From: a virus
Length of the DNA stretch: 64,000 nt
Direction: 5' to 3' (one strand)
Virus record (IMG/VR): IMGVR_UViG_3300045988_164636
Location: 1 to 64,000 of that record
Notes under the pieces: model-generated
Told to the model about the DNA's origin: nothing
Databases searched by the model: none
Seen by the model: only the letters and a program-made list of their open reading frames with translations
Part shown: positions 268 to 57,793 of the stretch, piece by piece
Numbering within the stretch: the stretch's first letter is position 1
How the letters are laid out: each line of letters opens with the position of its first letter
Translations under genes and position numbers: made by a program

Positions 268-330
268 AGCAAGAAAAACACGGTTAAGCCGAAACCACCG
301 AAAAGTGTTTCGGGGAAAAGGATATCTACA

Positions 331-672
331 ATGTATACGATAATCAATTCGTTAATCGCAAGCGTAAAGCCCATAACCGCTGAATACTCACCTGACGCTT
401 TAAGCCGTCTCGTAGACTTAGAAAAAATCGCTGACGATTATGCAAGCTATGACTATATCGACACACGCTATAGCGATATGTCGGAAATTGACGAAATAAT
501 GGATAGTCTTATAAGCGACCTTGAGAACGATTTTTACACCGATACCGGTATATATGACAAGTCAAACGCTGATAAAGTTATCAATACTGTATATGATATT
601 TTTACCGCATTTGCAAGTTGGACGGACGACATGTCAAGCAATAGCCATTCTGTAAGTTTTTGGAACGCATAA
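331..672 (+). CDS. hypothetical early protein, strongly acidic (D/E/Y-rich)
   Basis: 113-aa ORF directly downstream of the duplicated promoters; no recognisable family. Confidence 0.6.
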   Translation: MYTIINSLIASVKPITAEYSPDALSRLVDLEKIADDYASYDYIDTRYSDMSEIDEIMDSLISDLENDFYTDTGIYDKSNADKVINTVYDIFTAFASWTDDMSSNSHSVSFWNA

Positions 673-12985: not shown

Positions 12986-13723
12986 TCAATTTTCATTCGC
13001 CCAATCTTTCTCATCTATTAATTGAGTTCTTTTCTTGGGATAATAGCCTAATTTATTAATTACTAAATCAACAAATAAATCATAAGAATCCGCAGTTTCT
13101 ATAGCACCAACAGCCGCATCTCTTTCTTCTTTTGTTAAAATACCATTTTTATAATCATCATCTATTGCGGCAATCAGAACATCTACGTTACCATAAGCAG
13201 TAGCCGCACATTCTTTTAATATTTTTAATTCTTCTTCATTAAGTGGGGCAGTTCCTCGTTCATTAGTCCAGATATATTCACTTCTACCTAAATCGCCACG
13301 GTCCGCCAGATGATTGTGTCCATAGTGTTTTACTTTTGAATTATTAGTATAAACTTTAGCAGTATTTAGAGATATTTGAGTATGAACTTCTTTTATATTT
13401 CTCCATATATCTTCTCCAACTCTTGCACAAGTATCTATTCTTTCTTTATATAATACTTCATTAATTTGTCCATTCTTATCTTTGATTTTGCCCCATCTCT
13501 TCGGCATTTCTTTATCAATAATTTCAAATGCTTTTGTATACTCAGGATAAAATACTCTATCAATGTATAATTTTTTACCCTCAAAATGATATTCTGCATA
13601 AGTTTTTAAAAGCTCAAATTTTTTAGCTCTTGTAGTAGATGAACTTCTGCTAATTGAATCTGGTTTTAATCCAAACCAAACCGATAATTCTCTTAAGGTT
13701 ATATAGCCTTCTTTTAATTCCAT
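12986..13723 (-). CDS. hypothetical protein with N-terminal HTH-like segment (paralog of 14274-14987)
   Basis: MELKEGYITLRELSVWFGLKPDSI vs MELQENKIYTSAELAEWFKITPKTF; RBS AAAGGAGA. Confidence 0.65.
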   Translation of the reverse strand: MELKEGYITLRELSVWFGLKPDSISRSSSTTRAKKFELLKTYAEYHFEGKKLYIDRVFYPEYTKAFEIIDKEMPKRWGKIKDKNGQINEVLYKERIDTCARVGEDIWRNIKEVHTQISLNTAKVYTNNSKVKHYGHNHLADRGDLGRSEYIWTNERGTAPLNEEELKILKECAATAYGNVDVLIAAIDDDYKNGILTKEERDAAVGAIETADSYDLFVDLVINKLGYYPKKRTQLIDEKDWANEN

Positions 13724-13770
13724 AATATTTGTCTCCTTTTAAAAAATTTTTATTCTTGATTTTTATTTTA

Positions 13771-13846
13771 GTAAGATAAAGTATCTATAATTTTTAAGCT
13801 ATATATATATTTCTATAGCTTAAAAATTATAGATACTTTATCTTAC
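13771..13846. repeat. perfect 33-bp inverted repeat with 10-nt spacer
   Basis: Arms 13771-13803 and 13814-13846 are exact reverse complements (GTAAGATAAAGTATCTATAATTTTTAAGCTATA). Confidence 0.95.
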
Positions 13847-27349: not shown

Positions 27350-27673
27350 GCCGCAGTTGGTTATTACGAATCTGCGATGAAAACAAAATTTGTAATAAAT
27401 ATAAGAATGGTAGTTTAATAAAAATTCTGTCATATGCGGAGATGCAGGTAAAGAATCCTGAACGTTCTTATTTTAAATGTAATTACATTTTTGTCTTTTG
27501 GGTTTATTTAGACAATAAAGAAAATAAAACAGCATAAGCTACGCTATAGGAGCTGTACTGTGAGTTCAGGTAAAAACTTCGACTTTATTAACTAAGACGT
27601 GAGGGAGTTAATCGGCTTATGAAATTTCGATGACGGGAAATTTTAGGGTTGCAACCTTGATAGCAGTATATAC
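27350..27673 (+). ncRNA. ORF-free 324-nt spacer, candidate structured RNA
   Basis: No credible ORF; starts with GCCGCAGTT as does the spacer at 33677; local hairpins. Confidence 0.3.
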
Positions 27674-27750
27674 AGGGGAGTATCCGAATTGGCATAGGAG
27701 TTAGTTTCAAACACTAAATTATAAGGGTTCAAATCCCTTCTTCCCTACCA
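27674..27750 (+). tRNA. class I tRNA with anticodon CAA (Leu codon UUG), short variable loop
   Basis: Acceptor AGGGGAG/CTTCCCT, anticodon stem TTAGT/ACTAA, loop UUCAAAC, variable ATTAT, T AAGGG-TTCAAAT-CCCTT, A73, CCA. Confidence 0.7.
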
Positions 27751-27755
27751 TTAGA

Positions 27756-27986
27756 AGAGCTGGTTAGTTTAATGGCTAAAACGAAATCGAGTCGTTAAAT
27801 GATAAATTCAAGTATTCTTTTGAAATTTAGTTCATTTCAACTGAATAAACTAAATTTATTGATTTAAATGTCAAACGGATCCAATTGAGGTGCACCAATT
27901 TTTTACTGACGGATTTAGAAGTTAGAACTAAGAACTTCATTGACACAACAAGATTTAATGCGGGTTCGATTCCCGTACTGGCTCTT
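27756..27986 (+). ncRNA. tRNA-like element with about 160-nt insertion
   Basis: 5' AGAGCTG + D-like TTAG/CTAA + hairpin AACGA-AATCGAG-TCGTT; 3' GCGGG-TTCGATT-CCCGT + TGGCTCT pairing with the 5' end (2 G-U pairs). Confidence 0.3.
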
Positions 27987-27991
27987 AATAT

Positions 27992-28116
27992 GTGGAGGTA
28001 GCCCAACGGCAGAGGCAATGGACTTGTGGAGTGATCGGTATCATTAATTGGTTCAACTCCAATACTTCGCACCAAAAATCCATTCAGTGTGGGTTCGAAT
28101 CCCATTCTCCGCACCA
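27992..28116 (+). tRNA. tRNA interrupted in the anticodon loop by a 49-nt tRNA-like minihelix (28026-28074)
   Basis: Outer acceptor GTGGAGG/TCTCCGC, anticodon stem ATGGA 28018-28022 / TCCAT 28079-28083, T GTGGG-TTCGAAT-CCCAT, A73, CCA. Insert has its own acceptor GTGGAGT/ACTTCGC, T arm ATTGG-TTCAACT-CCAAT and A-CCA. Confidence 0.6.
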
Positions 28117-30705: not shown

Positions 30706-30782
30706 ACGAGTGTGGTGCAATTGGTAGACACAGAGGCTTCAAGTACCTCCATTTCTGGGTTCGAATCCCAGCACTTGTACCA
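30706..30782 (+). tRNA. class I tRNA with anticodon CAA and Leu-type D arm
   Basis: Acceptor ACGAGTG/CACTTGT, D GTG-CAATTGGTAGA-CAC, loop UUCAAGU, variable CATTT, T CTGGG-TTCGAAT-CCCAG, A73, CCA. Confidence 0.7.
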
Positions 30783-32512: not shown

Positions 32513-32746
32513 ATGCAGACGATTTATAAGATGAAGTTAAATACAATTAATGATGTTAAGTCTTTTGTCGATGCGGCAAATGAATATAAGGGAAGAATTA
32601 CTGTCCGCAATATGCACTACGCTGTAGACGGAAAGTCAATCATGGGAATTTTTTCAATTGATTTGTCGGGTATTCTTGATGTAGAATTTGATAATGAACC
32701 CAGTAATGAAATACTTGATTTATTTAAGAGTTGGAGAGTTAAGTGA
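32513..32746 (+). CDS. HPr-like domain protein lacking the His15 site
   Basis: AVDGKSIMGIFSIDL resembles the HPr Ser46 region (KSIMG..SL); no HARPA motif. Confidence 0.45.
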   Translation: MQTIYKMKLNTINDVKSFVDAANEYKGRITVRNMHYAVDGKSIMGIFSIDLSGILDVEFDNEPSNEILDLFKSWRVK

Positions 32747-33198
32747 AGGAAGTTCATATTTTAATAGGAATCCCCGCAAGTGGTAAATCTACTTTTGCTA
32801 AAAATTTTGTTTTCTCTCATAAAGGGTACAAAATTGTATCAACAGATGATATAAGATGGAAGTTATTTGGAGATGCAAGTATACAGGGAAATCCTAAGAT
32901 GATTTTTGCTATTGCTCACAAAGAAATTATGTCTTATTTAGATAAAGGATATAATGTTATATTTGACGCAACAAATATATCAAGAAAAAATCGAGTAAAT
33001 CTTATTAATTTTTTAAAAGAATGTGAAGTAGAAAATGTTGTGGCGGATTATTTTCCTGTTACAATAGATGTTGCTCTTGAGAGAAATCAGCAAAGAAAAA
33101 GACACGTTCCAGAAAAAGTTATTCATAAGATGTTTGGCAAAATTGAGAAGCCTAAATATGAGGAAGGATTTTCAGAAATAAATTGCCACAACGATTAA
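32743..33198 (+). CDS. P-loop kinase (polynucleotide-kinase / AAA_33-like)
   Basis: GIPASGKST Walker A, STDDIR, FDATN. Confidence 0.6.
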   Translation: MKEVHILIGIPASGKSTFAKNFVFSHKGYKIVSTDDIRWKLFGDASIQGNPKMIFAIAHKEIMSYLDKGYNVIFDATNISRKNRVNLINFLKECEVENVVADYFPVTIDVALERNQQRKRHVPEKVIHKMFGKIEKPKYEEGFSEINCHND

Positions 33199-33281: not shown

Positions 33282-33357
33282 TGCGGGATGATGCAGAGGT
33301 AACATGTTAGCTTAGTAAAACTAATTACAGAGGGTTCAAGTCCTTCTCCCGCCACCA
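33282..33357 (+). tRNA. tRNA-like gene with expanded (8-10 nt) anticodon loop and U1-C72 mismatch
   Basis: Acceptor TGCGGGA/TCCCGCC, D ATGC/ACAT, anticodon stem TTAG(C)/(A)CTAA with loop UUAGUAAA, T GAGGG-TTCAAGT-CCTTC, A73, CCA. Confidence 0.5.
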
Positions 33358-33597
33358 GTGGATTTTCATATTCCGCTTTCTACGAGCGATAGCTTGCATG
33401 AGAAGTAGACGGGACCGGTCATCAATGATTGCAAGGTTGAGAACTTCCGCTTCAATTCCTTTAAATAGTTATATCTCCTGCGGGAATATGACAGCCTTGA
33501 AATTGCGATAGAGAGGTAGGTTTTATGGGAAGATAGCATAAAAAATGCACTTGATTGCAATGAGGGATATTGGTTGAAATCCAATTCTTCTCACCAA
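33358..33597 (+). ncRNA. ORF-free spacer ending in a tRNA-like T arm + acceptor + CCA
   Basis: 3' end ATTGG-TTGAAAT-CCAAT TCTTCTC A CCA; candidate 5' partners GAGAAGT (33400) or GAGAGGT (33511), but no canonical D or anticodon arms. Confidence 0.3.
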
Positions 33598-33676: not shown

Positions 33677-34102
33677 GCCGCAGTTTCTTATATAATTAAT
33701 CTGAGGGACTAAATTAAAATTGATTATATAGAGAGAATAAACATGGATTTAGTAGATAAACTACCACCGATTGATTAATTCAAGTATGTGGCTCGTGGCT
33801 TAAACTCTCTACAAAAAATAAGGCAAAGTAATCTACAATATGGTATTATCTGTACCAAGGTCTTAACCTCGAGACCTTATAAATAAAGAAGGAGATAATT
33901 GCTCTACTCGTAGTCTCATTAGCTTTAAAAGCAACAGAACGAGGACTAACTAAGTGATTCATGAGTCACTGGTTAGGTTCAGTAGTAGATTTAGCCTGTA
34001 TCGGCTTGGTGTACGAGAAATTGCGTCATAGACGTGGTTTCTGAGGCACGCTGGAGAATTTAGACATCCAGAGGAAGTAGATCCTACTACTGAATTAAAT
34101 AT
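33677..34102 (+). ncRNA. 426-nt ORF-free, highly structured RNA candidate
   Basis: Helices TTCAGTAGTAG/CTACTACTGAA (11 bp, enclosing about 95 nt), AAGGTCT/AGACCTT, CTGGA/TCCAG, CGTG/CACG, TATATAAT/ATTATATA; contains TAAGGCAAAG...CAATATGG. Confidence 0.4.
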
Positions 34103-34992: not shown

Positions 34993-35287
34993 GACCAACG
35001 TCTTTAGTAACCTCCCCGTGGTGTTGGTTGGGTAATTCTAATACTAAAGTTTCGATAGAGGACACTTCCTCATAAAGCGGCTACAGCAAATATTCTTATA
35101 AATTGGATTATGAAAAATTTTTTCCGCTTTGTTAATTTATTTAAGACGGACAAACAGCAACTTCAAATGATAAATTATTTTTATGTTAAGCCTCCTTCCA
35201 TCCGTCTTGAAAATAGAAAGAGCCTTACAGCAAATATTCTTATAATACTTTTTATTATATTAATTAGGCTCTTGTATTTACAAAAAA

Positions 35288-35344: not shown

Positions 35345-35623
35345 ATGGTATCATTTGAATTAAAAGAAAATCAAACTGGATATGAAGTCATAGAAGATTA
35401 TTTTGTAAAAAAATTTAATTTTCGTTTAGGAATTTATGAACAATATCTTGTTGCTTTGGAAATATCATATGATAATGTTTATTGGACAAGAGTTACAGAT
35501 ATATTACAAACAGATTCAATGTATTTTGAATGGGGTATAGATTGGTATGAAGGTGAAAAATATATTCATCTTTTAGGTGTTAAAAATATAGAAGATATTG
35601 ACATTATTGGAGAAGGAGTTTAA
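35345..35623 (+). CDS. hypothetical protein
   Basis: 92-aa ORF, RBS AAAGGAA. Confidence 0.55.
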   Translation: MVSFELKENQTGYEVIEDYFVKKFNFRLGIYEQYLVALEISYDNVYWTRVTDILQTDSMYFEWGIDWYEGEKYIHLLGVKNIEDIDIIGEGV

Positions 35624-35624
35624 A

Positions 35625-37073
35625 ATGACAATTACTGAACAACTTACAGATATGTTATCAGAAAAAAGAACTGAAAATGGAGCAATCTCATGGAGTACAA
35701 CACAGTCTAGAATTATAGATATGTTTGCTTCAATAGGCGGCAAAAGAAATGCTTCAACAGAAGAAATAGAAAATATATATCTTGCCGCACGAACAGAAAA
35801 TGCGGATTTAGCTGACAAGATGATTTTCTATTGTAGAGATATTCTTGGGGGACTGGGAGAAAGACGTATTGGAAGAATATTGCTTCATAAATTAGCTTGT
35901 ATTGACCCTGATAAAATGAAAAGAAATTTTAACTTAATTGCAAAGTATGGTAGATGGGATGACTTTTATTGTTTAGAATATACTCCCTGTGAAATGGATA
36001 TGTGGGAATATTTATATGGACAACTTATATTCGATCATATGGAATATACGTTACGCACTGGAAATGTTTCATTACTTGCTAAATGGCTTAAGAGTGAAAA
36101 TGCTTCTTCTGCGGAAGCTAAAAGACTTGCCCGCAAGTTTTGTCAGATAAATAATATCTCTTATAAAAAGTATAGAAAGATACTTTCAGAATTAAGAAAA
36201 TATATAAATGTAATTGAAACTAAAATATCTAAAAATGAATGGAATACAATTGAATATTCAACTATTCCTTCAATAGCTCATCATAAATATTCAAGTGCTT
36301 TTGCAAAACATGATAGAGAAAGATATACAGAATATCTTGAAAAATTAAAATCAAATAGTCCAGAAGTAAAGATAAATGCAAAGACGATAACTCCCGCAAC
36401 AATTATTTCAAATATATCTAATCCAGCGGCAGAAGCTCAGTGGAATGCCTTACCTAACTATTTTACTGGTAACAAGAATATCATTTGTTGTGCAGATGTT
36501 AGTGGTTCAATGAGGTATAGTGGCTGTTGTTCGGGAACTCAACCAATAGATAATTCAATAGGATTAGCAATGTATTGTGCAATGCACAATAATGGAATTT
36601 ATAAAAATAAATATTTGACTTTTACTGATAAACCTACATTAATTGAATATGATTCAAAAAGAGATTTAGCATATAACGTTGGACGAGCAAAAACTCATAT
36701 AGGATATAACACTAATCTCGATGGAATGTTTGAAGCAATTTATGAGGCGGCATCCGCAGCACACAGGTCACCAGAAGGTCTTGTAATTGTTTCAGATATG
36801 GAAATAGATAGCTTTTTAGCAGAAAATAAAACAGATGGCATAGTTGATAAGTGGTCAAAAAAGTTCCATGCTGCTGAGCTTGCATTTTTCCCCGTTGTAT
36901 TTTGGAATGTTGATGCTCGTAATGACTTTACTATATTAAATAAAATTAAAAATCCTTATGTTAAATATGCAAGTGGCAATTCTCCTACAATATTTAGCAA
37001 TCTTGAAACAATTATGGATAAATCTCAGTATGATGCAATAGTAGAAATATTAAATAAGTATGAAGTGGTTTAA
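35625..37073 (+). CDS. DUF2828/Ro60(TROVE)-like helical domain + vWA domain protein
   Basis: Start at MTITEQL after GGAGAAGGAG; N-terminal TENGAISWSTT...RDILGGLGERR...YGRWDDF pattern; MIDAS motif DVSGSM. Confidence 0.5.
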   Translation: MTITEQLTDMLSEKRTENGAISWSTTQSRIIDMFASIGGKRNASTEEIENIYLAARTENADLADKMIFYCRDILGGLGERRIGRILLHKLACIDPDKMKRNFNLIAKYGRWDDFYCLEYTPCEMDMWEYLYGQLIFDHMEYTLRTGNVSLLAKWLKSENASSAEAKRLARKFCQINNISYKKYRKILSELRKYINVIETKISKNEWNTIEYSTIPSIAHHKYSSAFAKHDRERYTEYLEKLKSNSPEVKINAKTITPATIISNISNPAAEAQWNALPNYFTGNKNIICCADVSGSMRYSGCCSGTQPIDNSIGLAMYCAMHNNGIYKNKYLTFTDKPTLIEYDSKRDLAYNVGRAKTHIGYNTNLDGMFEAIYEAASAAHRSPEGLVIVSDMEIDSFLAENKTDGIVDKWSKKFHAAELAFFPVVFWNVDARNDFTILNKIKNPYVKYASGNSPTIFSNLETIMDKSQYDAIVEILNKYEVV

Positions 37074-48831: not shown

Positions 48832-50022
48832 ATGTTAAACCCCAAAACTCAAGAAAGAGAACTTTGTTATGTAGTTGAAATTAATGATATTCAGCCTATT
48901 CCTAATTATGATAGAGTTGAATTAGCAACGGTAAATGGTTGGCATATCATCGTTCAGAAGAATCAGTTTAAGGTCGGAGATAAGGCTGTTTATTTTGAAG
49001 TAGATTCAAGAGCACCTGAAAGTGCGGAATTTGATTTTCTTGCCAAGAGAAAGTATAAAATTAAGACTTTAAAAATGTGCGGCTGCATTTCTCAAGGATT
49101 ACTTATGTCTTTTGCAGATTTTGGTTTTGCAGAAGATGAATATAATATAGGAGATTTTTTAACTAAGAAATTAAATGTTACTTATGCTGATGATGAAGAT
49201 AATGCAAGAAAGGCACCTTCCGCAGATAAGTATAAAAAGATGGAAATGCGTCATAAAAAACTTTTTAAAAATTCTTTTGTAAAGAAAGTTATGCAGTATG
49301 AAGTTGGACGTAAGATAATGTTTGTTTTCTTTGGTAAGAAGAAAGATAAGAAGTCAAGTTTCCCTAACTGGGTTGTGAAAACTGATGAAGAAAGAGCCGA
49401 AAACCTACCCTATCTATTTAATAGCAAGAATAGAGAATCTATGCATTGGATGGTTACAGAAAAGATTGATGGAACTTCTGCAACATTCACTTTGAAGAAG
49501 ATAGGTAAGCATAAGTACGATTATCGAGTATGTTCAAGAAATGTATGTTTTGATAAGCCTGATAAGAAATGCTTCTATGAAACAAATGTGTATACTGAAA
49601 TTGCAGAAAGATATAATATGGAGCAGAAACTTAAGCAGCTATTTGAAATAAGTGAAGATATAGTTTTTGTTACAATTCAAGGCGAAATATACGGGAAAAA
49701 AATCCAAAAGAGAGATTATAATATGGAAGGAACAGATCTTGCTATTTTTAATGTTATTTTTGGTTATAAAGATGGTTCAACAGAAAGGTTAAATCCTCGT
49801 GAAATGGAAGTCATTATGAAGATATATAATCTTCCTACTGTTCCAGTCCTTGATTATAACTTTACTTTACCTGTAACTTGTGATGAAATGTTAGAATATG
49901 CGGCAAGTGAAAAATCAAAAATAGACGGCGGTATGCGTGAAGGTGTTGTATTAAGAAGTTTTGATGGTAAGCAATCTTTTAAGGCTGTATCAAGAGATTT
50001 CTTACTCAAATATCATAGTTAA
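48832..50022 (+). CDS. ATP-dependent RNA ligase, Rnl5 (DraRnl/NgrRnl)-type
   Basis: N-terminal OB-like ...VVEINDIQPIPNYDRVELATVNGWHIIVQK; motif I KIDGTS; IQGEIYG; EGVVLR...FKAVS. Confidence 0.8.
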   Translation: MLNPKTQERELCYVVEINDIQPIPNYDRVELATVNGWHIIVQKNQFKVGDKAVYFEVDSRAPESAEFDFLAKRKYKIKTLKMCGCISQGLLMSFADFGFAEDEYNIGDFLTKKLNVTYADDEDNARKAPSADKYKKMEMRHKKLFKNSFVKKVMQYEVGRKIMFVFFGKKKDKKSSFPNWVVKTDEERAENLPYLFNSKNRESMHWMVTEKIDGTSATFTLKKIGKHKYDYRVCSRNVCFDKPDKKCFYETNVYTEIAERYNMEQKLKQLFEISEDIVFVTIQGEIYGKKIQKRDYNMEGTDLAIFNVIFGYKDGSTERLNPREMEVIMKIYNLPTVPVLDYNFTLPVTCDEMLEYAASEKSKIDGGMREGVVLRSFDGKQSFKAVSRDFLLKYHS

Positions 50023-50036
50023 TAGGAGTAACAATA

Positions 50037-50792
50037 ATGTCAATCTATATAACAGGAGATACTCATGGAGATTTCCGCAGATTTTCTGCGGATAATTTCC
50101 CTGAAGGTAAAACACTTACAAAAAAAGATTATGTTATTATATGCGGTGATTTTGGTGGAATATGGGATGTCAAAGAATCTTCTCCGCAAGAAAAATATTG
50201 GTTAGACTGGTTAAATGGAAAACCTTGGACTACATTGTTTGTTGATGGAAATCATGAGAATTTTGATAGACTAAACTCTTTACCTGTTGAATATTGGCAT
50301 GAAGGTTACGTTCATATTGTAAGACCAAGTATTTTACATCTTATGCGTGGTGAAAGATTTATTATTGATAATTGTCGTATACTTGCTTATGGCGGAGCAC
50401 CTAGCCATGATGTATATGATGGTATTCTTGATAGAGAAAATTATCAAACTGATGCAATATTCAAATTCAATGTTAAACGGTATCAAAAGCAACATAAAGC
50501 TTTTCGTATTAATCATATTTCTTGGTGGAAAGAAGAAGTTCCTAGCATACAAGAGTATGAGTATGCTTTAGATAATTTATGCTATCGGAGGACTAATAAT
50601 TTTTTAATTACACATGAAGCTCCCGCCCCAATTTTATCTACTTTTGGCTACCCTTATAATCAGACTTCTTTCGAAATATTTGACTTTTTGCAATATGGTT
50701 ATTTTGATAAACATTATTTTGGACATCATCATATTAATCAAGATTTTGGCAAAAGTGAATGTATATATAATATAATAAAGAAAATATGGTAA
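50037..50792 (+). CDS. calcineurin-like metallophosphoesterase
   Basis: GDTHGD, GDFGG, GNHEN motifs in order. Confidence 0.75.
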   Translation: MSIYITGDTHGDFRRFSADNFPEGKTLTKKDYVIICGDFGGIWDVKESSPQEKYWLDWLNGKPWTTLFVDGNHENFDRLNSLPVEYWHEGYVHIVRPSILHLMRGERFIIDNCRILAYGGAPSHDVYDGILDRENYQTDAIFKFNVKRYQKQHKAFRINHISWWKEEVPSIQEYEYALDNLCYRRTNNFLITHEAPAPILSTFGYPYNQTSFEIFDFLQYGYFDKHYFGHHHINQDFGKSECIYNIIKKIW

Positions 50793-50874: not shown

Positions 50875-51204
50875 ATGATAAGTAGATTTTTTTGTTGTGA
50901 ATGTGGTCAGGAAGGAATACCAATCTTCCGCAAACCAAGCTGTAAAAGAGAAAGAGGTCATTTAAAAAATTTATTTTGTGTACATTGTGGACGAGAAACT
51001 AATCATGTCGAGATAAAAGAAAATGACTTTGAATATACCTATGAAGATTTTGAAAAAGAATTTAAATTAGGTAGATTTATTAATGGAAAACGCATTCCAG
51101 TTAATGAATTGCAATACTGTAGCAATATTAATTGTAGTAGATATGTAAATGGCAAATGTTGGGATGCCGCAAATATTTCAAACTGTAAATATAAGGAGGG
51201 ATAA
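50875..51204 (+). CDS. zinc-ribbon protein
   Basis: CCECG ... CVHCG plus C-terminal Cys cluster. Confidence 0.55.
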   Translation: MISRFFCCECGQEGIPIFRKPSCKRERGHLKNLFCVHCGRETNHVEIKENDFEYTYEDFEKEFKLGRFINGKRIPVNELQYCSNINCSRYVNGKCWDAANISNCKYKEG

Positions 51205-51205
51205 A

Positions 51206-51760
51206 ATGTCTATCTTAATAACATCAGATCTTCACTTGAATCATGATAAAGATTTTATTTATGGCTCAAGAGGATATTCTACTGTAAAAGAAATGAATGA
51301 AGATATAGTAACGAAGTGGAACATGACTATTGATAATAAAGATACAATTTATGTTCTCGGTGACATTATGATGGGTAAGGACATAGAAACTGCCGCACAC
51401 TATTGGAATAAATTAAAGGGCGATAAAAAAATAATCTTAGGTAATCATGATTCTAAGAAAAAAATTGAATTGTATCAAACCTGCCCTAACACAGAAGTAA
51501 TTGGATATGGCGGAATTATTAAATATAAAGGGTATAGATTTTATTTATCTCATTATCCTGCTCTTTGCGGAAATGCAGATGATAGAGATTTAAAATCTTG
51601 TACAATTAATTTATGTGGACATAAACATACTAAAAATGCTTTTGAAGATTGGAATTTAGGAAAAATTTATCATATTGAATTAGATACTAATTTTATGTAT
51701 CCTTGTGACTTGGACTTAATTTTATTTAATATAAAGGAGAAAATGAGAAATGACTTTTAA
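51206..51760 (+). CDS. metallophosphoesterase (second copy, different family member)
   Basis: Start at MSILITSDLHLNHD after AAGGAGGGA; GDIMMG, GNHD, GHKH. Confidence 0.7.
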   Translation: MSILITSDLHLNHDKDFIYGSRGYSTVKEMNEDIVTKWNMTIDNKDTIYVLGDIMMGKDIETAAHYWNKLKGDKKIILGNHDSKKKIELYQTCPNTEVIGYGGIIKYKGYRFYLSHYPALCGNADDRDLKSCTINLCGHKHTKNAFEDWNLGKIYHIELDTNFMYPCDLDLILFNIKEKMRNDF

Positions 51761-52565: not shown

Positions 52566-53753
52566 ATGAAAAAATTTTATGATACCTGTAGTCTTTTAGA
52601 TCTACAGGAAAAGGCTTTTGAGGAAGATTTTTATATTAGTATTATTACTTTAAGAGAATTAGAAAATATAAAAACCTCTGCAAATAAAGATGCGGAAACC
52701 AAATACAAAGCCAGAAAATTGTCTAAACTTTTACAAAAATATGCAGATAAATATGAAGTAATTTTAGACCAAACTAATGATATAATTACCGCAGATGATA
52801 GAATAATATCTGCCGCACAGTCAGTGGAATGTCAATTTGTAACCAAAGATATGTGTTGTTGGAATTTAGCAAAAGCCAAACATTTAAATATGGATTTTAT
52901 AATTGATAACACTATTGATGGTTATACTGGTTTCAAAGAAATATTTGTTCCAACAGAAGAAAATTTAGCTTATTTTTATGAGCATATGAATGAAAACATT
53001 TTTGATTTATTACGGAATGAATATTTAATCATAAAAACTGCGGAAGATGGTAAGATTGGTCCATATATTTGGACAGGAACAGAATATCAAGAAATTGGGT
53101 ATCCTAATTTTTGTTCAGAACAGTTTGGAAAAATAAAACCAAAAGATGAATATCAACTTGCTGCGATGGATTGTCTTAGCCGCAATCAAATAAGTATGGT
53201 AAGAGGCGGCGCCGGAACAGGCAAATCATTTCTATCTTTAGCTTATTTATTTCATCTTTTAGAGGAAGGTCAAATAGATAAAATCATTGTCTTTTGTAAT
53301 ACTATAGCTACAATTGGATCCGCTAAGCTTGGATATTACCCCGGAAGCAAGGATGAGAAGCTTTTAGACTCTCAAATTGGTAATATCTTGACCAGTAAAT
53401 TAGGTGATAGTTTTGCTGTTGAACAAATGATTGAATCTGGAAAATTACTTTTATTACCATTTTCTGATTTAAGAGGTTTTGATACAACAGGTATGAGAGC
53501 AGGAGTTTATATAACAGAAGCTCAGAATCTTGATATTAATCTTATGAAGCTGGCATTACAAAGAATTGGTGATGATTGTATTTGTATTTTAGATGGTGAT
53601 TCAGATACTCAGGTTGATGATTCTAATTATGCAGGTATTAATAATGGTATGAGAAGAACTTCTGAAATTTTCAGAGGTCATGATATATATGGAGAAGTTA
53701 CACTTCAAAGAGTTTATCGAAGCAAAATTGCGGAAATAGCTGAGCAAATGTAG
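52566..53753 (+). CDS. phoH: PIN-domain + PhoH-like ATPase
   Basis: N-terminal PIN-like domain; Walker A GGAGTGKS; PhoH C-terminal pattern. Confidence 0.8.
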   Translation: MKKFYDTCSLLDLQEKAFEEDFYISIITLRELENIKTSANKDAETKYKARKLSKLLQKYADKYEVILDQTNDIITADDRIISAAQSVECQFVTKDMCCWNLAKAKHLNMDFIIDNTIDGYTGFKEIFVPTEENLAYFYEHMNENIFDLLRNEYLIIKTAEDGKIGPYIWTGTEYQEIGYPNFCSEQFGKIKPKDEYQLAAMDCLSRNQISMVRGGAGTGKSFLSLAYLFHLLEEGQIDKIIVFCNTIATIGSAKLGYYPGSKDEKLLDSQIGNILTSKLGDSFAVEQMIESGKLLLLPFSDLRGFDTTGMRAGVYITEAQNLDINLMKLALQRIGDDCICILDGDSDTQVDDSNYAGINNGMRRTSEIFRGHDIYGEVTLQRVYRSKIAEIAEQM

Positions 53754-54311: not shown

Positions 54312-54776
54312 ATGATAGAAATTTATACAGATGGTAGTTCAGCAAAAATTGGAAGTGGCTATGGCACAATAGTTATGTTAGATAGTCCTTATATTATATC
54401 AGAATATTTTGAAGAGGGAACTAATAATCAGATGGAACTAAAGGCAATAATTGCCGCACTAGAGTTTGCAAAAGAACATAAAGAAGATAAATTTATTATC
54501 TATTCGGATTCAGCTTATTGCGTAAATATGTGTAATGACTGGATTTTTAATTGGGCTGCGGCAGGCTGGAGGAGAGGAAAAAATAAGGAAATTTTAAATT
54601 TAGATTTAGTAAAAAAAATATATTCTTTATTAGATACCACTTTTAACCGTAATTATACTATTGAAAAGGTTGATGGACATAGCGGTAATATTGGTAATGA
54701 GATAGCTGATGCTGTTGCTACAAGAAATAAAGTAAAATTGAACAAATTTTTAGAAAAGTATGAGAGAGAAGTTTGA
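54312..54776 (+). CDS. rnhA: ribonuclease HI
   Basis: IYTDGS, ELKAII, YSDSAY, GHSGNIGNEIAD catalytic pattern. Confidence 0.85.
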   Translation: MIEIYTDGSSAKIGSGYGTIVMLDSPYIISEYFEEGTNNQMELKAIIAALEFAKEHKEDKFIIYSDSAYCVNMCNDWIFNWAAAGWRRGKNKEILNLDLVKKIYSLLDTTFNRNYTIEKVDGHSGNIGNEIADAVATRNKVKLNKFLEKYEREV

Positions 54777-54830: not shown

Positions 54831-56342
54831 ATGAAAAATAATATTAATTATTCTGCTGATTCAGTCCAGACGTTGATTGGACTGGAGCCTTTTAGAAAAT
54901 CTCCCGGTATGTATATTGGTGATACTGGAGAATATGGACTTCATCATATAGTTAAAGAGATTATTAATAATTCGGTAGATGAAGCTTTAAATGCCAATTG
55001 TACACATATTAATATAACATTGTTAAAAGATGGCGGAGTTCAGATTGAAGATGATGGACGAGGTTTCCCGCATGGAATGTTAGACGATACATTTTCTATT
55101 TTAGGAGGATGTTTCGGAAAGGAACATACCGGAGGAAAGTTTAACAATAATGGTGAATCAGGATATAATACTTCTGGTGGTATGCATGGTATAGGATGTA
55201 AATGTGCTGCAGCTCTTGGTATTAAAACTATAGCTATTTCGCATAGAGATGGTATTGAAGAAATAGTTGAATTTTCAAGAGGTAAAATGATTAAGCAGAT
55301 AACTGATAATAAATGTGATTCTAATTTGCATGGAACTTTAGTTATTTGGTATCCAGATCCAGAAATATTTAAGACAACAATTACATTCAATAGAGAAAAG
55401 ATTGAAAAAGAATTCTGTCAAGAATACAGTTTTTTAAATAGCGGATTATATTTTACCATTAAAGATGAGAGAACAAATTATTATAAAGAATATTATTCAA
55501 AAAATGGTATTGAAGATTACTTAAATTATTTAAATAAAGATAAGACTTATATTTTACATCCAGTGTGTTTTTCTGCGGAAGAAGGAAATTATAGTATTGA
55601 ACTTGGAATTGCTTATAATACGGAATATTCTAATTCAATAAGATTATATACTAATAGTATCCCTCAAACAAAAGGAACTCACTTAACTGGATTTAAAACA
55701 GCTTGGACTTCCGCAATTAATAAGTTTGCAAAAGAAAATAAATGGTTAAAAGCAAATGATAGTAATTTATCTGGTGATGATTTATTAGAAGGTCAGCTTT
55801 TGATAATAAACTTTAAAATGGTTGACCCTATTTTTGAAGGACAGACAAAAGAAAATTTAACCTCGGCGGAAGGTAGAACTTATACTCAGAAATTGATTTC
55901 TTCTTCTTTTGAAGAAATATTCAATAGCCGCAAAAACGAAATTAAAACAGTAGTTGATAAGGCAACAAGTGCAAGAAAAGCAAGAGATGCCGCAAAAAAG
56001 GCAAGAGAAAGAATAAGAGAAGGAAATAAAAAAGGATTAAAGGCAAAAATGGCAATCAGTAAAAAATTTGTTGATTGCATATCTAAAAATCCTGCGGAAA
56101 GAAATCTTCTCTTGGTTGAAGGAAATAGTGCGGCAAGTAGTGCAATTGAAGCAAGAAACGCAAAGACTGATTGTATTTATATGTTAAGAGGTAAAGTTGT
56201 AAGTCCGCTAAAAACTCCAATTGATAAACTTTTAGCTAATCAAGAAATTTCAGATATAGTTAAGGTAATTGGAGCTGGATTTGGTAACGACTTCGATGTG
56301 AATAAGATGAACTTTGATAAAATCGTTATAACCTCGGATGCT
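54831..56342 (+). CDS. gyrB: type II topoisomerase B subunit (GyrB/ParE-like), exon 1
   Basis: GLHHIVKEIINNSVDEA ATPase motif; Toprim EGNSAASSA; ends ...KIVITSDA just before the DxD motif. Confidence 0.85.
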
Positions 56343-57394
56343 AAGAGAATGAAATTGGCTGTGTAATACCTTTCAAGTTTACCACTTGGGTAACTTTATA
56401 TAAACCATCTTAGTCATTTTTGAATGAGATATAGATGGAATTAATATAAAGTTGCTAACGGGGAAACCTGACCAGATAGTGCTGAAGGTAATCCCGTGGC
56501 AAACATTATTTAATTCCTTATTATTATTAAAAGGAGAAAACATATAATGATAGGAATTTATAAAATCACTAACAAAAATACAGGTAAAGTTTATATCGGG
56601 CAATCTGATAATATTGAAAGAAGATTAAACGAACACAAACAAAAAAGAACTCAAACAATAGATAATTATATCAATGTTTTGGGTGTAGAAAATTTTGATT
56701 TTGAAATTTTGGAAGAATGTAAGAAAGAAGATTTAGATTTAAAAGAAAAGGAATATATTAAAAAATATAATTCTCAAATTAAAGGATATAATATTCAACA
56801 AGGTGGGTATAATAATTCTCAAGGTGAAGGTAATGGAAGAGCTCTTTTAACGGAGGCAGATGTTATCTTTATCAGAACAGCTTATCAAAATCATGAATCG
56901 CCAAAAGAAATTTTTGAAAAATATTTTTCAGACAAAATAACAAAAAATAATTTTCAAAGTGTTTGGCAAGGAAGAACTTGGATAAATATTATGCCAGAAG
57001 TTTATACTGAAGAAAATAAGAAATATTATATTTCTGGACAACAAAAAGCAAAATCTTCTCTTTCAAAAGAAGAAGTTCTCTTATATAGACAATATTATGT
57101 TGATCATACAAGAGAAGAAGTTTATCAAAAGATGTTATCTGATAAAGGCGATATTTTAAAAAAAGCTACTTTTTTTAAAATATTAATAGGTGATGTCAGA
57201 GATAATAGTATTTATAAAGAAATTCCAATTTATAAAAAATCAAAAAAGTGTTGGGAATTAAATAATGAGGCTGTATCGACTATCCCCGAATCGGGGGAGT
57301 AGAGCTATTATTGGTACATAGTTCGAAATGGTATCCTTAGTTTTATAGACTAAGTAAGAGATAGTCAGGGCTTATAGAAATATAAGAATAACCG
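56343..57394 (+). mobile_element. group I intron carrying a GIY-YIG homing endonuclease
   Basis: Follows exon T 56342 and ends in G 57394; P4-like ACGGGGAAACC / AATCCCGTGG; AAGAGATAGTCAGGG S-like element; joining the exons restores ITSDA-DSDG-LDIELLLVTFFFTYMRPL. Confidence 0.8.
56547..57302 (+). CDS. GIY-YIG homing endonuclease (intron-encoded)
   Basis: GIYKITNKNTGKVYIGQSDNIERRLNEH. Confidence 0.85.
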   Translation: MIGIYKITNKNTGKVYIGQSDNIERRLNEHKQKRTQTIDNYINVLGVENFDFEILEECKKEDLDLKEKEYIKKYNSQIKGYNIQQGGYNNSQGEGNGRALLTEADVIFIRTAYQNHESPKEIFEKYFSDKITKNNFQSVWQGRTWINIMPEVYTEENKKYYISGQQKAKSSLSKEEVLLYRQYYVDHTREEVYQKMLSDKGDILKKATFFKILIGDVRDNSIYKEIPIYKKSKKCWELNNEAVSTIPESGE

Positions 57395-57793
57395 GATTCA
57401 GATGGGCTAGATATTGAACTTCTTCTAGTTACATTCTTCTTTACCTACATGAGACCACTTGTAGAAGCTGGTAAATTATATAGAGCGGTAACCCCTCTTT
57501 ATATAATCAAAAATGGTAAAGAAAAAGTATATATATATTCAGAAGATGAGTTTACAGATTGGAAGACCAGACATGGTAACCCTACCGAGATATTACGAGC
57601 GAAGGGTCTAGGAGAGTTAGACGCAACCGTACTTCACGAGGTATGTTTCGAGAACCAAAGATTTAGGCGAATTACGATTTCAGATGTAGACCAAGCGGCC
57701 GCACTTCTTGATACATTACAGGGTAAAGCAGTTGAACCTCGTAAAAAGTATATTTATGAAAATGCGGAACATTTAGGATTTAATTTTGATTAA
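57395..57793 (+). CDS. gyrB: type II topoisomerase B subunit, exon 2
   Basis: In-frame DSDGLDIELLLVTFFFTYMRPLVEAGKLYRAVTPLY..., the GyrB C-terminal Toprim/tail pattern. Confidence 0.8.
   Translation, partial: DSDGLDIELLLVTFFFTYMRPLVEAGKLYRAVTPLYIIKNGKEKVYIYSEDEFTDWKTRHGNPTEILRAKGLGELDATVLHEVCFENQRFRRITISDVDQAAALLDTLQGKAVEPRKKYIYENAEHLGFNFD

Follow-up and report, generated by a model that had tools for sequence, protein, structure and literature searches.

How is a tRNA made from a gene whose anticodon loop contains a second, tRNA-shaped element? The question is raised by positions 27992–28116 of IMG/VR virus record IMGVR_UViG_3300045988_164636, a phage sequence of which positions 1 to 64,000 (64,000 nucleotides [nt], called the window here) were analyzed. 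A preliminary description made from the letters alone had recognized an outer cloverleaf with 56 nt, rather than 7, between the two strands of its anticodon stem, and within them a 49-nt insert (28026–28074) with an acceptor stem, a T arm, a discriminator A and a CCA end of its own. All of these elements are present, and comparison with related phages fixes the boundaries of the insert to the base. Our tentative reading, plausible though short of probable, is that 28026–28074 is a tRNA-shaped intron, which would be spliced from a functional tRNA(UAA) by RNase P, a cut after its CCA, and ligation.

An interrupted tRNA(UAA) gene

The locus is made up of the following features.

27992–28116, + strand: the whole interrupted tRNA gene, with anticodon UAA, a short variable arm, A73 and an encoded CCA; recognized by the Rfam tRNA model, by ARAGORN in intron mode and from uninterrupted orthologues
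27992–28025, + strand: 5′ exon, tRNA positions 1–34, identical to the 5′ part of the empty allele L041
28026–28074, + strand: 49-nt tRNA-shaped intervening element, with five variants in three lineages and compensatory pairs
28075–28116, + strand: 3′ exon, tRNA positions 35–76 (42 nt), which recurs in relatives as an exact 42-mer

The 5′ exon comprises the acceptor strand GTGGAGG (27992–98), the D arm GCCC-AACGGCAG-AGGC (28001–16), the anticodon-stem strand ATGGA (28018–22) and C32-U33-U34 (CTT, 28023–25). The 3′ exon continues with A35–A38 (AAAA, 28075–78), the opposing anticodon-stem strand TCCAT (28079–83), the variable loop TCAGT (28084–88), the T arm GTGGG-TTCGAAT-CCCAT (28089–28105), the acceptor strand TCTCCGC (28106–12), A73 (28113) and CCA (28114–16). 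The anticodon loop is not continuous, and one of 7 nt arises only once 28026–28074 is removed. The Rfam tRNA model (RF00005) bridges the interruption, spanning 27992–28113 (122 nt) with 40 bits against a gathering score of 29; the uninterrupted allele L041 reaches 56 bits on the same model. ARAGORN did not report the gene at 27992–28116 in its default mode, and in intron mode returned a tRNA at the locus with a 49-nt intron. The minimum-free-energy fold retains the outer acceptor, T and anticodon stems together with the inner helices. The folding energy itself is not significantly different from that of shuffled sequences (z = −1.0) and is uninformative; the case therefore rests on comparison with relatives.

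Viral contigs were scanned with 19 nt of the 5′ half of the tRNA(UAA), which yielded 22 loci. In nineteen of these the tRNA is uninterrupted: its loop reads CTTAAAA (anticodon UAA), the variable arm is short, the D arm is like that of tRNA-Leu, and position 73 is A. Further relatives, L041 among them, were gathered through the downstream 272-residue protein (77–80% identical). When the flanks of 28026–28074 are joined, they equal the tRNA at 27–102 of L041 in 76 of 76 bases. The insert is therefore exactly 28026–28074, between U34 and A35, and the anticodon is UAA. The loop CUUAAAA, which had been predicted from removal of the insert, thus exists as a natural allele, and the anticodons UGA and UGU, which a boundary slid by a base or two had left in play, are excluded. 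The insert-bearing L024 and the empty L041 have a common 5′ flank, and target-site duplication is absent. A pseudogene would have been indicated by an uninterrupted orthologue alongside a decaying interrupted copy; the orthologue exists, but the exons are identical over all 76 positions and show no decay.

In this phage group, every tRNA that has a Leu anticodon (CAA, UAA or UAG) is 76–77 nt long with a short variable arm (window 27674–27750, 30706–30782 and 27992–28116; L024 5649–5725; L028 22–98). A long variable arm is normal for bacterial tRNA-Leu.

Conservation of the insert and nesting of whole tRNAs

From its first base, the insert reads GTGGAGT, GATCGGTATC, ATTA, ATTGG-TTCAACT-CCAAT, ACTTCGC, A and CCA. 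These segments are the 5′ strand of an acceptor stem (28026–32), a mini D-arm hairpin GAU-CGGU-AUC (28033–42), a linker (28043–46), a T arm (28047–63, with the loop UUCAACU at 28052–58), the 3′ strand of the acceptor (28064–70), A73 (28071) and CCA (28072–74). The hairpin of 3 base pairs (bp) and 4 nt at 28033–42 had been overlooked in the preliminary description. With it, the insert is a tRNA that lacks the anticodon arm only; it begins at the +1 base, stops at CCA and has nothing added at either end. Besides the window, the insert was found in the following genomes.

L005/L023: sister phage with different flanks and a neighboring protein 79% identical; 49 nt, identical to the window insert in 49 of 49 bases
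L024: ENA metagenome contig; 50 nt, with two stem changes (G·U to G-C and to A-U) and two more changes in the linker and T loop
L034: 124.7-kb contig binned as a Bacilli metagenome-assembled genome; 50 nt, like L024 plus an extra double change from G-C to A-U
L033: different phage lineage; 49 nt, GTCTGAT GTT-CGGT-AAC CTAG ACTGG-GTCAGCA-CCAGT ATCAGGC A CCA
L042: different phage lineage; 50 nt, CGTAAAT TTC-CAGT-GAA CTTGA TTAAG-GGCAGCA-CTTAT ATTTACG A CCA

All five variants have a 7-bp acceptor stem beginning at the first inserted base, the mini D arm of 3 bp and 4 nt, a T arm, A73 and a terminal CCA. L033 and L042 have other outer acceptor stems, and their inserts diverge strongly from that of the window and occupy the same site between CTT and AAAA; their T loops (GUCAGCA and GGCAGCA) are non-canonical. 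In an alignment of the five variants, standard pairs fill 98.7% of the cells of the 15 proposed pairs, and 12 of these pairs show compensatory changes on both sides across the three lineages. None of 500 shuffles reached the observed values, and registers slid by 1–3 columns were only 33–51% paired. Outside the helices, the invariant bases are A73, CCA, positions 3 and 4 of the hairpin loop (G and U) and C56/A57 of the T loop. The hairpin G might pair with the T-loop C, as G19 does with C56 in a tRNA elbow. The features of an RNase P substrate, namely a 7-bp acceptor stacked on a 5-bp T stem and followed by a 3′ NCCA, are thus conserved with compensation. An assembly artefact is effectively excluded.

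The same alignment bears on the view that the insert is a recombination scar or selfish filler. On that account, DNA was captured during repair of a break made by an HNH endonuclease and kept since it destroys the endonuclease target, leaving a tRNA pseudogene. The site is indeed a demonstrated intron and homing-endonuclease site in sister genomes (see below), and the likeness of the inner to the outer acceptor strand in the window (GTGGAGT versus GTGGAGG) hints at an origin from a tRNA. This likeness is absent from L033 and L042, however, and a scar would not be expected to show paired changes at 12 of 15 helix positions in three lineages with invariant CCA, A73 and candidate elbow bases. Nor does it fit the complete identity of the insert between the window and L005, despite a neighboring protein of only 79% identity, or the lack of decay in the exons. 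The covariation largely refutes this alternative, which the preliminary description had also entertained, and we regard it as very improbable indeed.

Sequence change has been slower in the exons than in the insert. In a comparison of the window, L024 and L034, one change was counted in 76 exon bases, as against five substitutions and one indel in 49 insert bases; the four substitutions that fall in stems of the insert preserve pairing. In the divergent lineages L033 and L042, the outer tRNAs are intact and their acceptor stems are compensated. Together, these observations argue that the outer tRNA is still used.

The window and 31 loci (291 kb) were searched with a covariance model of the insert (R1), which found the known copies only, one per genome, the weak matches being ordinary tRNAs. 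Rfam scans of 27992–28116 and its surroundings, at gathering and at permissive thresholds, returned nothing beyond the tRNA model and no ribozyme or intron, and a phage GenBank collection held no DNA match to the tRNA(UAA) locus or to the long intron of L020 described below. Several candidates from pattern scans were discarded: matches in metagenomes (L030–32) are chance matches inside coding genes, L043 from the viral scan is likewise a chance match, and in a broad genome scan with 94 matches none of those inspected stood in a tRNA context except L034.

Whole tRNAs are nested in the same manner. Each predicted tRNA was excised from the collected loci and the joined flanks were rescanned, which gave two cases. 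At 13658–13733 of L042, a 76-nt tRNA-Lys(UUU) lies inside a tRNA-Gln (13625–13775) whose loop is restored as CUU/UGAC. At c364–438 of L034, a 75-nt AT-rich tRNA lies inside a tRNA-Lys (323–471, minus strand) with the outer loop CUU/UUAA, so that this one contig carries both a minihelix and a nested whole tRNA. A scan with the 5′ half of the outer tRNA-Gln of L042 gave 52 loci: L042 itself, 49 uninterrupted genes of the tRNA-Gln family (mostly CUUUGAC), and L147 and L170, in which a long, open reading frame (ORF)-bearing, group I-like insert occupies the junction of positions 34 and 35 in tRNA-Gln(UUG). In every nested case the insert follows C32-U33-U34 and extends from +1 to CCA. The outer T loops of the whole-tRNA nestings are canonical and the inner ones often are not. 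The nesting arrangement is thus general.

Allelic states of the site and possible routes to a mature tRNA

Among close relatives, one gene with one 42-nt 3′ exon exists in three states at the junction of positions 34 and 35.

Empty (CTT before AAAA): L028, L041
Minihelix (CCA before AAAA): window, L005, L024, L034, L040
Long intron (GTAGTAAG before AAAA): L025, L029

The preliminary description had called for a comparison with related phages for presence or absence of the insert, which turned up both alleles; it had foreseen neither the allelism of the insert with an HNH-bearing long intron and an empty site nor the nesting of whole tRNAs. The long intron of L025 (1–280) contains an HNH-type ORF, and that of L029 lies at 1–89. 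In other lineages, L003 (1300–2198) has a long intron at the tRNA(UAA) site with an HNH ORF (Pfam E = 2e-5), and L020 (769–1036, minus strand) has one of 268 nt with no ORF. Two Logan contigs, L026 and L027, start exactly at A35, as happens in de Bruijn assembly of a sample that contains several alleles. We call the long introns group I-like because they occupy the classical tRNA-Leu(UAA) site, follow an exon ending in U and end in G, contain an HNH ORF in some cases, and have GNRA-capped hairpins with compensatory changes; a resemblance of motifs also counted toward this label. The Rfam model Intron_gpI did not match the long introns, and an alignment of the L020 intron to an Azoarcus intron sequence scored no higher than shuffles. 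According to a 2014 review, no intron was then known in any phage tRNA gene (PMC3984707).

The 49-nt insert is not itself a group I intron, as had been recognized from its size. The group I intron of tRNA-Leu(UAA) in cyanobacteria and plastids (subgroup IC3, as is the Azoarcus tRNA-Ile intron) shares its site, where a UAA anticodon is split between U34 and A35, and the U at the end of the 5′ exon. The insert is only 49–50 nt long, however, against roughly 200 nt or more for a group I intron, and lacks both the P3–P9 catalytic core and a terminal G; its last bases are CCA in five of five variants, and its shape is that of a tRNA, not P1–P9.

Splicing of the insert may be pictured as follows. 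The precursor would fold into the outer cloverleaf and bear the inner mini-tRNA in its anticodon loop. RNase P would recognize the inner module of acceptor, T arm, elbow and CCA and cut between U34 and G28026, leaving a 3′-OH on U34. We infer this 5′ cut strongly, because a U stands at −1, the acceptor stem opens with G1-C72 in four of five variants and with C1-G72 in L042, conservation extends to A73, CCA and the putative elbow bases, and the insert begins and ends like other tRNAs of the phage. The module offers all the determinants known for RNase P. Its U at −1 and encoded CCA match the other tRNA genes of the window, which has 15 tRNA-like genes with CCA encoded in 14 and U at −1 in 13. 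A second endonucleolytic cut directly after the inner CCA (A28074) would free A35. If made by an RNase Z-like enzyme that cuts after CCA, it would leave a 5′-phosphate; alternatively, a transesterifying nuclease might act, its ends then being healed by the phage kinase and phosphoesterases listed below. The exons, held by the outer acceptor, D, anticodon and T helices, would be sealed by an RNA ligase to give a 76-nt tRNA. We favor splicing over mere disruption of the gene because the boundaries at which a tRNA is matured fall precisely on the exon junctions, the exons change more slowly than the insert, and the outer tRNAs are intact in divergent lineages. The insert would fill the homing site of the HNH-encoding intron and leave the mature tRNA unchanged. 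Its allele would then be immune to intron invasion at one fifth of the cost, and might produce a second small RNA.

Candidate enzymes for healing and sealing the ends are encoded by the phage.

48832–50022, + strand: ATP-dependent RNA ligase of the Rnl5 (NgrRnl/DraRnl) type (PF21189 + PF09414; PDB 5cot, E = 5.5e-25)
32743–33198, + strand: polynucleotide kinase-like P-loop protein (PF13671; phrog_505, polynucleotide kinase)
50037–50792 and 51149–51760, + strand: two metallophosphoesterase genes, which adjoin the ligase

The product of 48832–50022 had rightly been taken for an RNA ligase. Its nearest solved relative is Naegleria NgrRnl, an Rnl5 enzyme, and it has the N-terminal OB domain PF21189; it is not of the Rnl1 type, which is marked by a tRNA-specific C-terminal domain. 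Homologues are encoded in both of the other insert-bearing contigs checked, L005 (90% identity) and L034 (67%). It is our candidate for the exon-sealing enzyme, and it would fit the 3′-OH/5′-phosphate chemistry. The kinase-like protein is possibly an end-healing enzyme, and the metallophosphoesterases could possibly heal 2′,3′-phosphates.

This gene set also lends itself to another chemistry. A metal-independent nuclease or an unrecognized ribozyme might leave a 2′,3′-cyclic phosphate and a 5′-OH, which the phage kinase and phosphoesterases would heal and the phage ligase or host RtcB would seal. The heal-and-seal set (polynucleotide kinase, two metallophosphoesterases and ligase) is complete, and the phage already appears to use a self-cleaving ribozyme at a tRNA 3′ end (candidate at 34993–35050; compare PMC10879173). 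No Rfam ribozyme was found in or around 27992–28116 even at permissive thresholds, however, and what is conserved corresponds to an RNase P substrate and to no known small ribozyme. Cleavage by RNase P at the 5′ junction also seems hard to avoid in vivo. We think this alternative quite improbable.

Several points weigh against splicing by RNase P, a cut after CCA and ligation. We infer every enzymatic step, and splicing itself, from sequence. The 3′ cut is the most troublesome step: we know of no established bacterial enzyme that cuts precisely 3′ of an encoded CCA, the RNase Z of B. subtilis is inhibited by CCA, and precursors bearing CCA are normally trimmed by exonucleases, which at the inner CCA would destroy the 3′ exon. 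RNase Z of Thermotoga reportedly cuts after CCA. Rnl5 ligases are known for sealing nicked duplexes, not anticodon loops. The same ligase is probably encoded also by sister phages whose allele is empty or holds a long intron, and its presence is therefore no discriminator. The theta-like ribozyme candidate at 34993–35050 gives the repair genes another possible purpose. The identity of exons across alleles could reflect recent gene conversion instead of selection. Finally, related phages have free-standing mini tRNA-like genes, whose RNAs may have a function of their own. Kienbeck et al. (2024; PMC10879173) report a 140-fold enrichment of DRB0094-family ligases among those gut phages of Bacteroidota and Bacillota that carry theta ribozymes. 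With the Rnl5/DRB0094 family so generally enriched in these phages, the ligase is not specific to the insert.

The free-standing genes, in which the anticodon arm is vestigial (3 bp and 4 nt) or absent, occur at 33527–33596 of the window and at about 6667–6728 of L007, with equivalents in L006, L016, L021 and L022. They lend weight to a reading without splicing, in which the insert is a nested gene. The tRNA promoter and RNase P would be used to make a 49-nt mini-tRNA (for example, a decoy or sponge for tRNA-directed host defenses or processing enzymes), and the outer tRNA would be sacrificed into halves. The inner element has the acceptor, putative elbow and CCA needed for release and stability, RNAs of similar form with a reduced or absent anticodon arm are encoded in the window and related phages (L006/L007), the empty alleles show that the insert is dispensable, and no enzyme is known that would make the 3′ cut and spare the 3′ exon. 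Yet the insert always occupies one precise position, between 34 and 35, which would be needless if expression alone mattered, and its boundaries are exon junctions to the base. The outer exons are perfectly tRNA-like and slower to change than the insert, with compensated acceptor changes in L033, L042 and L034, and in the full-tRNA cases it is the outer T loops that are the more canonical. We consider a nested gene unlikely, if by no means negligible. ARAGORN "introns" of 77–105 nt in L006, L007, L016, L021 and L022 were rejected as artefacts that join tRNA-Lys to a downstream armless tRNA-like RNA.

Genome context and relation to known systems

The window comes from a phage of about 127 kb and 30% guanine plus cytosine, which encodes gyrase, an NAD-dependent DNA ligase and many tRNAs; its host is likely of the Bacillota type. 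Further RNA-handling genes encode a TROVE/Ro-like DUF2828 RNA-binding protein (35598–37073), a PIN-PhoH protein (52566–53753) and an RNase H (54312–54776). Together with the ligase, the kinase and the phosphoesterases they make an unusually rich RNA-handling set. No EndA-like domain turned up among the window ORFs that were domain-scanned. The only window tRNA without CCA is tRNA-Gln(UUG), which has the theta-type ribozyme candidate (34993–35050), related to that of hepatitis delta virus (HDV), directly 3′ of it. On drz-agam-1 the candidate reaches 30.6 bits, against a gathering score of 37. The gyrB gene (54831–57793) is split into an N-terminal ORF of 511 residues and a C-terminal ORF of 114 residues with a GIY-YIG endonuclease segment between them (56547–57302), probably through an intron or homing-endonuclease insertion.

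Other structured RNAs lie nearby. Just upstream of the interrupted gene, 27757–27985 specifies a 229-nt RNA whose acceptor, D and T arms are tRNA-like and in which 156 nt are inserted at the place of the anticodon loop. It is conserved in L028 with compensation (UGUCAA/UUGACA to UACCAA/UUGGUA). A second CCA-ended minihelix suspected here from GUGCACCA was rejected: the L028 alignment puts the motif within the loop of a hairpin, and the loop residues do not resemble those of a tRNA; this is a different RNA. Long non-coding stretches at 27350–27673 and 33677–34102 directly follow a tRNA CCA and share the motif GCCGCAGUU, and an element at 33358–33450, after the tRNA at 33282–33357, recurs after tRNA(UAA) in L004-type phages. 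These three stretches are probably unannotated structured RNAs. In L033, positions 300–1500 form a dense, structured, tRNA-flanked non-coding run, with a tRNA (946–1017) that has a non-canonical T loop and with oddly ordered pieces resembling tRNA halves.

Parts of the arrangement have precedents. In archaeal and eukaryal tRNAs, short introns in the anticodon loop are likewise removed by proteins (EndA or TSEN, with RtcB or Trl1; split and permuted tRNAs are related cases) while the tRNA body holds the exons for ligation. These introns depend on a bulge-helix-bulge (BHB), in which the splice sites lie in two 3-nt bulges on either side of a 4-bp helix. The preliminary description had noted the absence of a BHB here, and the junctions agree: the 5′ site follows the 3-nt strand CUU and the 3′ site lies in the opposing 8-nt strand ACCA/AAAA of the same internal loop. 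The sites thus face each other across a 3 × 8 loop, at position 34/35 rather than 37/38, in a phage of a bacterial host, and the insert is a tRNA mimic. In MALAT1 mascRNA and in mitochondrial tRNA punctuation, both processed by RNase P and RNase Z, an embedded tRNA-shaped module likewise sets the cleavage points, with boundaries at +1 and the 3′ end. Those systems are eukaryotic or organellar, their flanks are not religated and CCA is added afterwards, whereas the RNA that carries the insert is itself a tRNA, which would be cut within its anticodon and require ligation. Phage T4 can reseal a break in an anticodon loop with a kinase/phosphatase and a ligase (Pnkp and Rnl1, against PrrC); it repairs host-inflicted damage in an uninterrupted tRNA, and its ligase is Rnl1 where the present one is of the Rnl5 type. 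By analogy, the insert may be closest in concept to a union of two processes, the release of tRNA-like modules by RNase P and RNase Z and the splicing of tRNAs with the help of a ligase. We know of no system that combines the two. Theta (HDV-like) ribozymes at the 3′ ends of gut-phage tRNAs involve the same class of phages, the same DRB0094/Rnl5 ligase and an unconventional tRNA maturation, but they trim a 3′ trailer and do not interrupt the tRNA, and introns are not mentioned in that work (PMC10879173).

A full-text literature search returned no description of tRNA-shaped inserts in tRNA anticodon loops. We regard the gene arrangement as new; the mechanism is a proposal. In its broadest form, this proposal would add a fourth class to the known tRNA introns, with members as small as a 49-nt armless mini-tRNA and as large as a full 76-nt tRNA. 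They would be excised at 34/35 by end-maturation enzymes, the exons would be rejoined by an Rnl5 ligase, and the elements would compete as a cheap immunity allele with homing-endonuclease group I introns. Taken as a whole, that claim is possible but doubtful. Even unspliced, conserved armless mini-tRNAs and whole tRNAs in anticodon loops would represent a new gene arrangement and a new class of small RNA. Default tRNA finders miss such genes, so phage tRNA repertoires, and inferences of codon reassignment, are incomplete. If splicing does occur, tRNA maturation enzymes can serve as a splicing endonuclease, and a function would be assigned to RNA ligases that are strikingly enriched in gut phages and whose role has so far gone unexplained. 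The contest between introns and their hosts would then have a new outcome, in which a host gene shields the target of a homing endonuclease with a minimal, spliceable filler.

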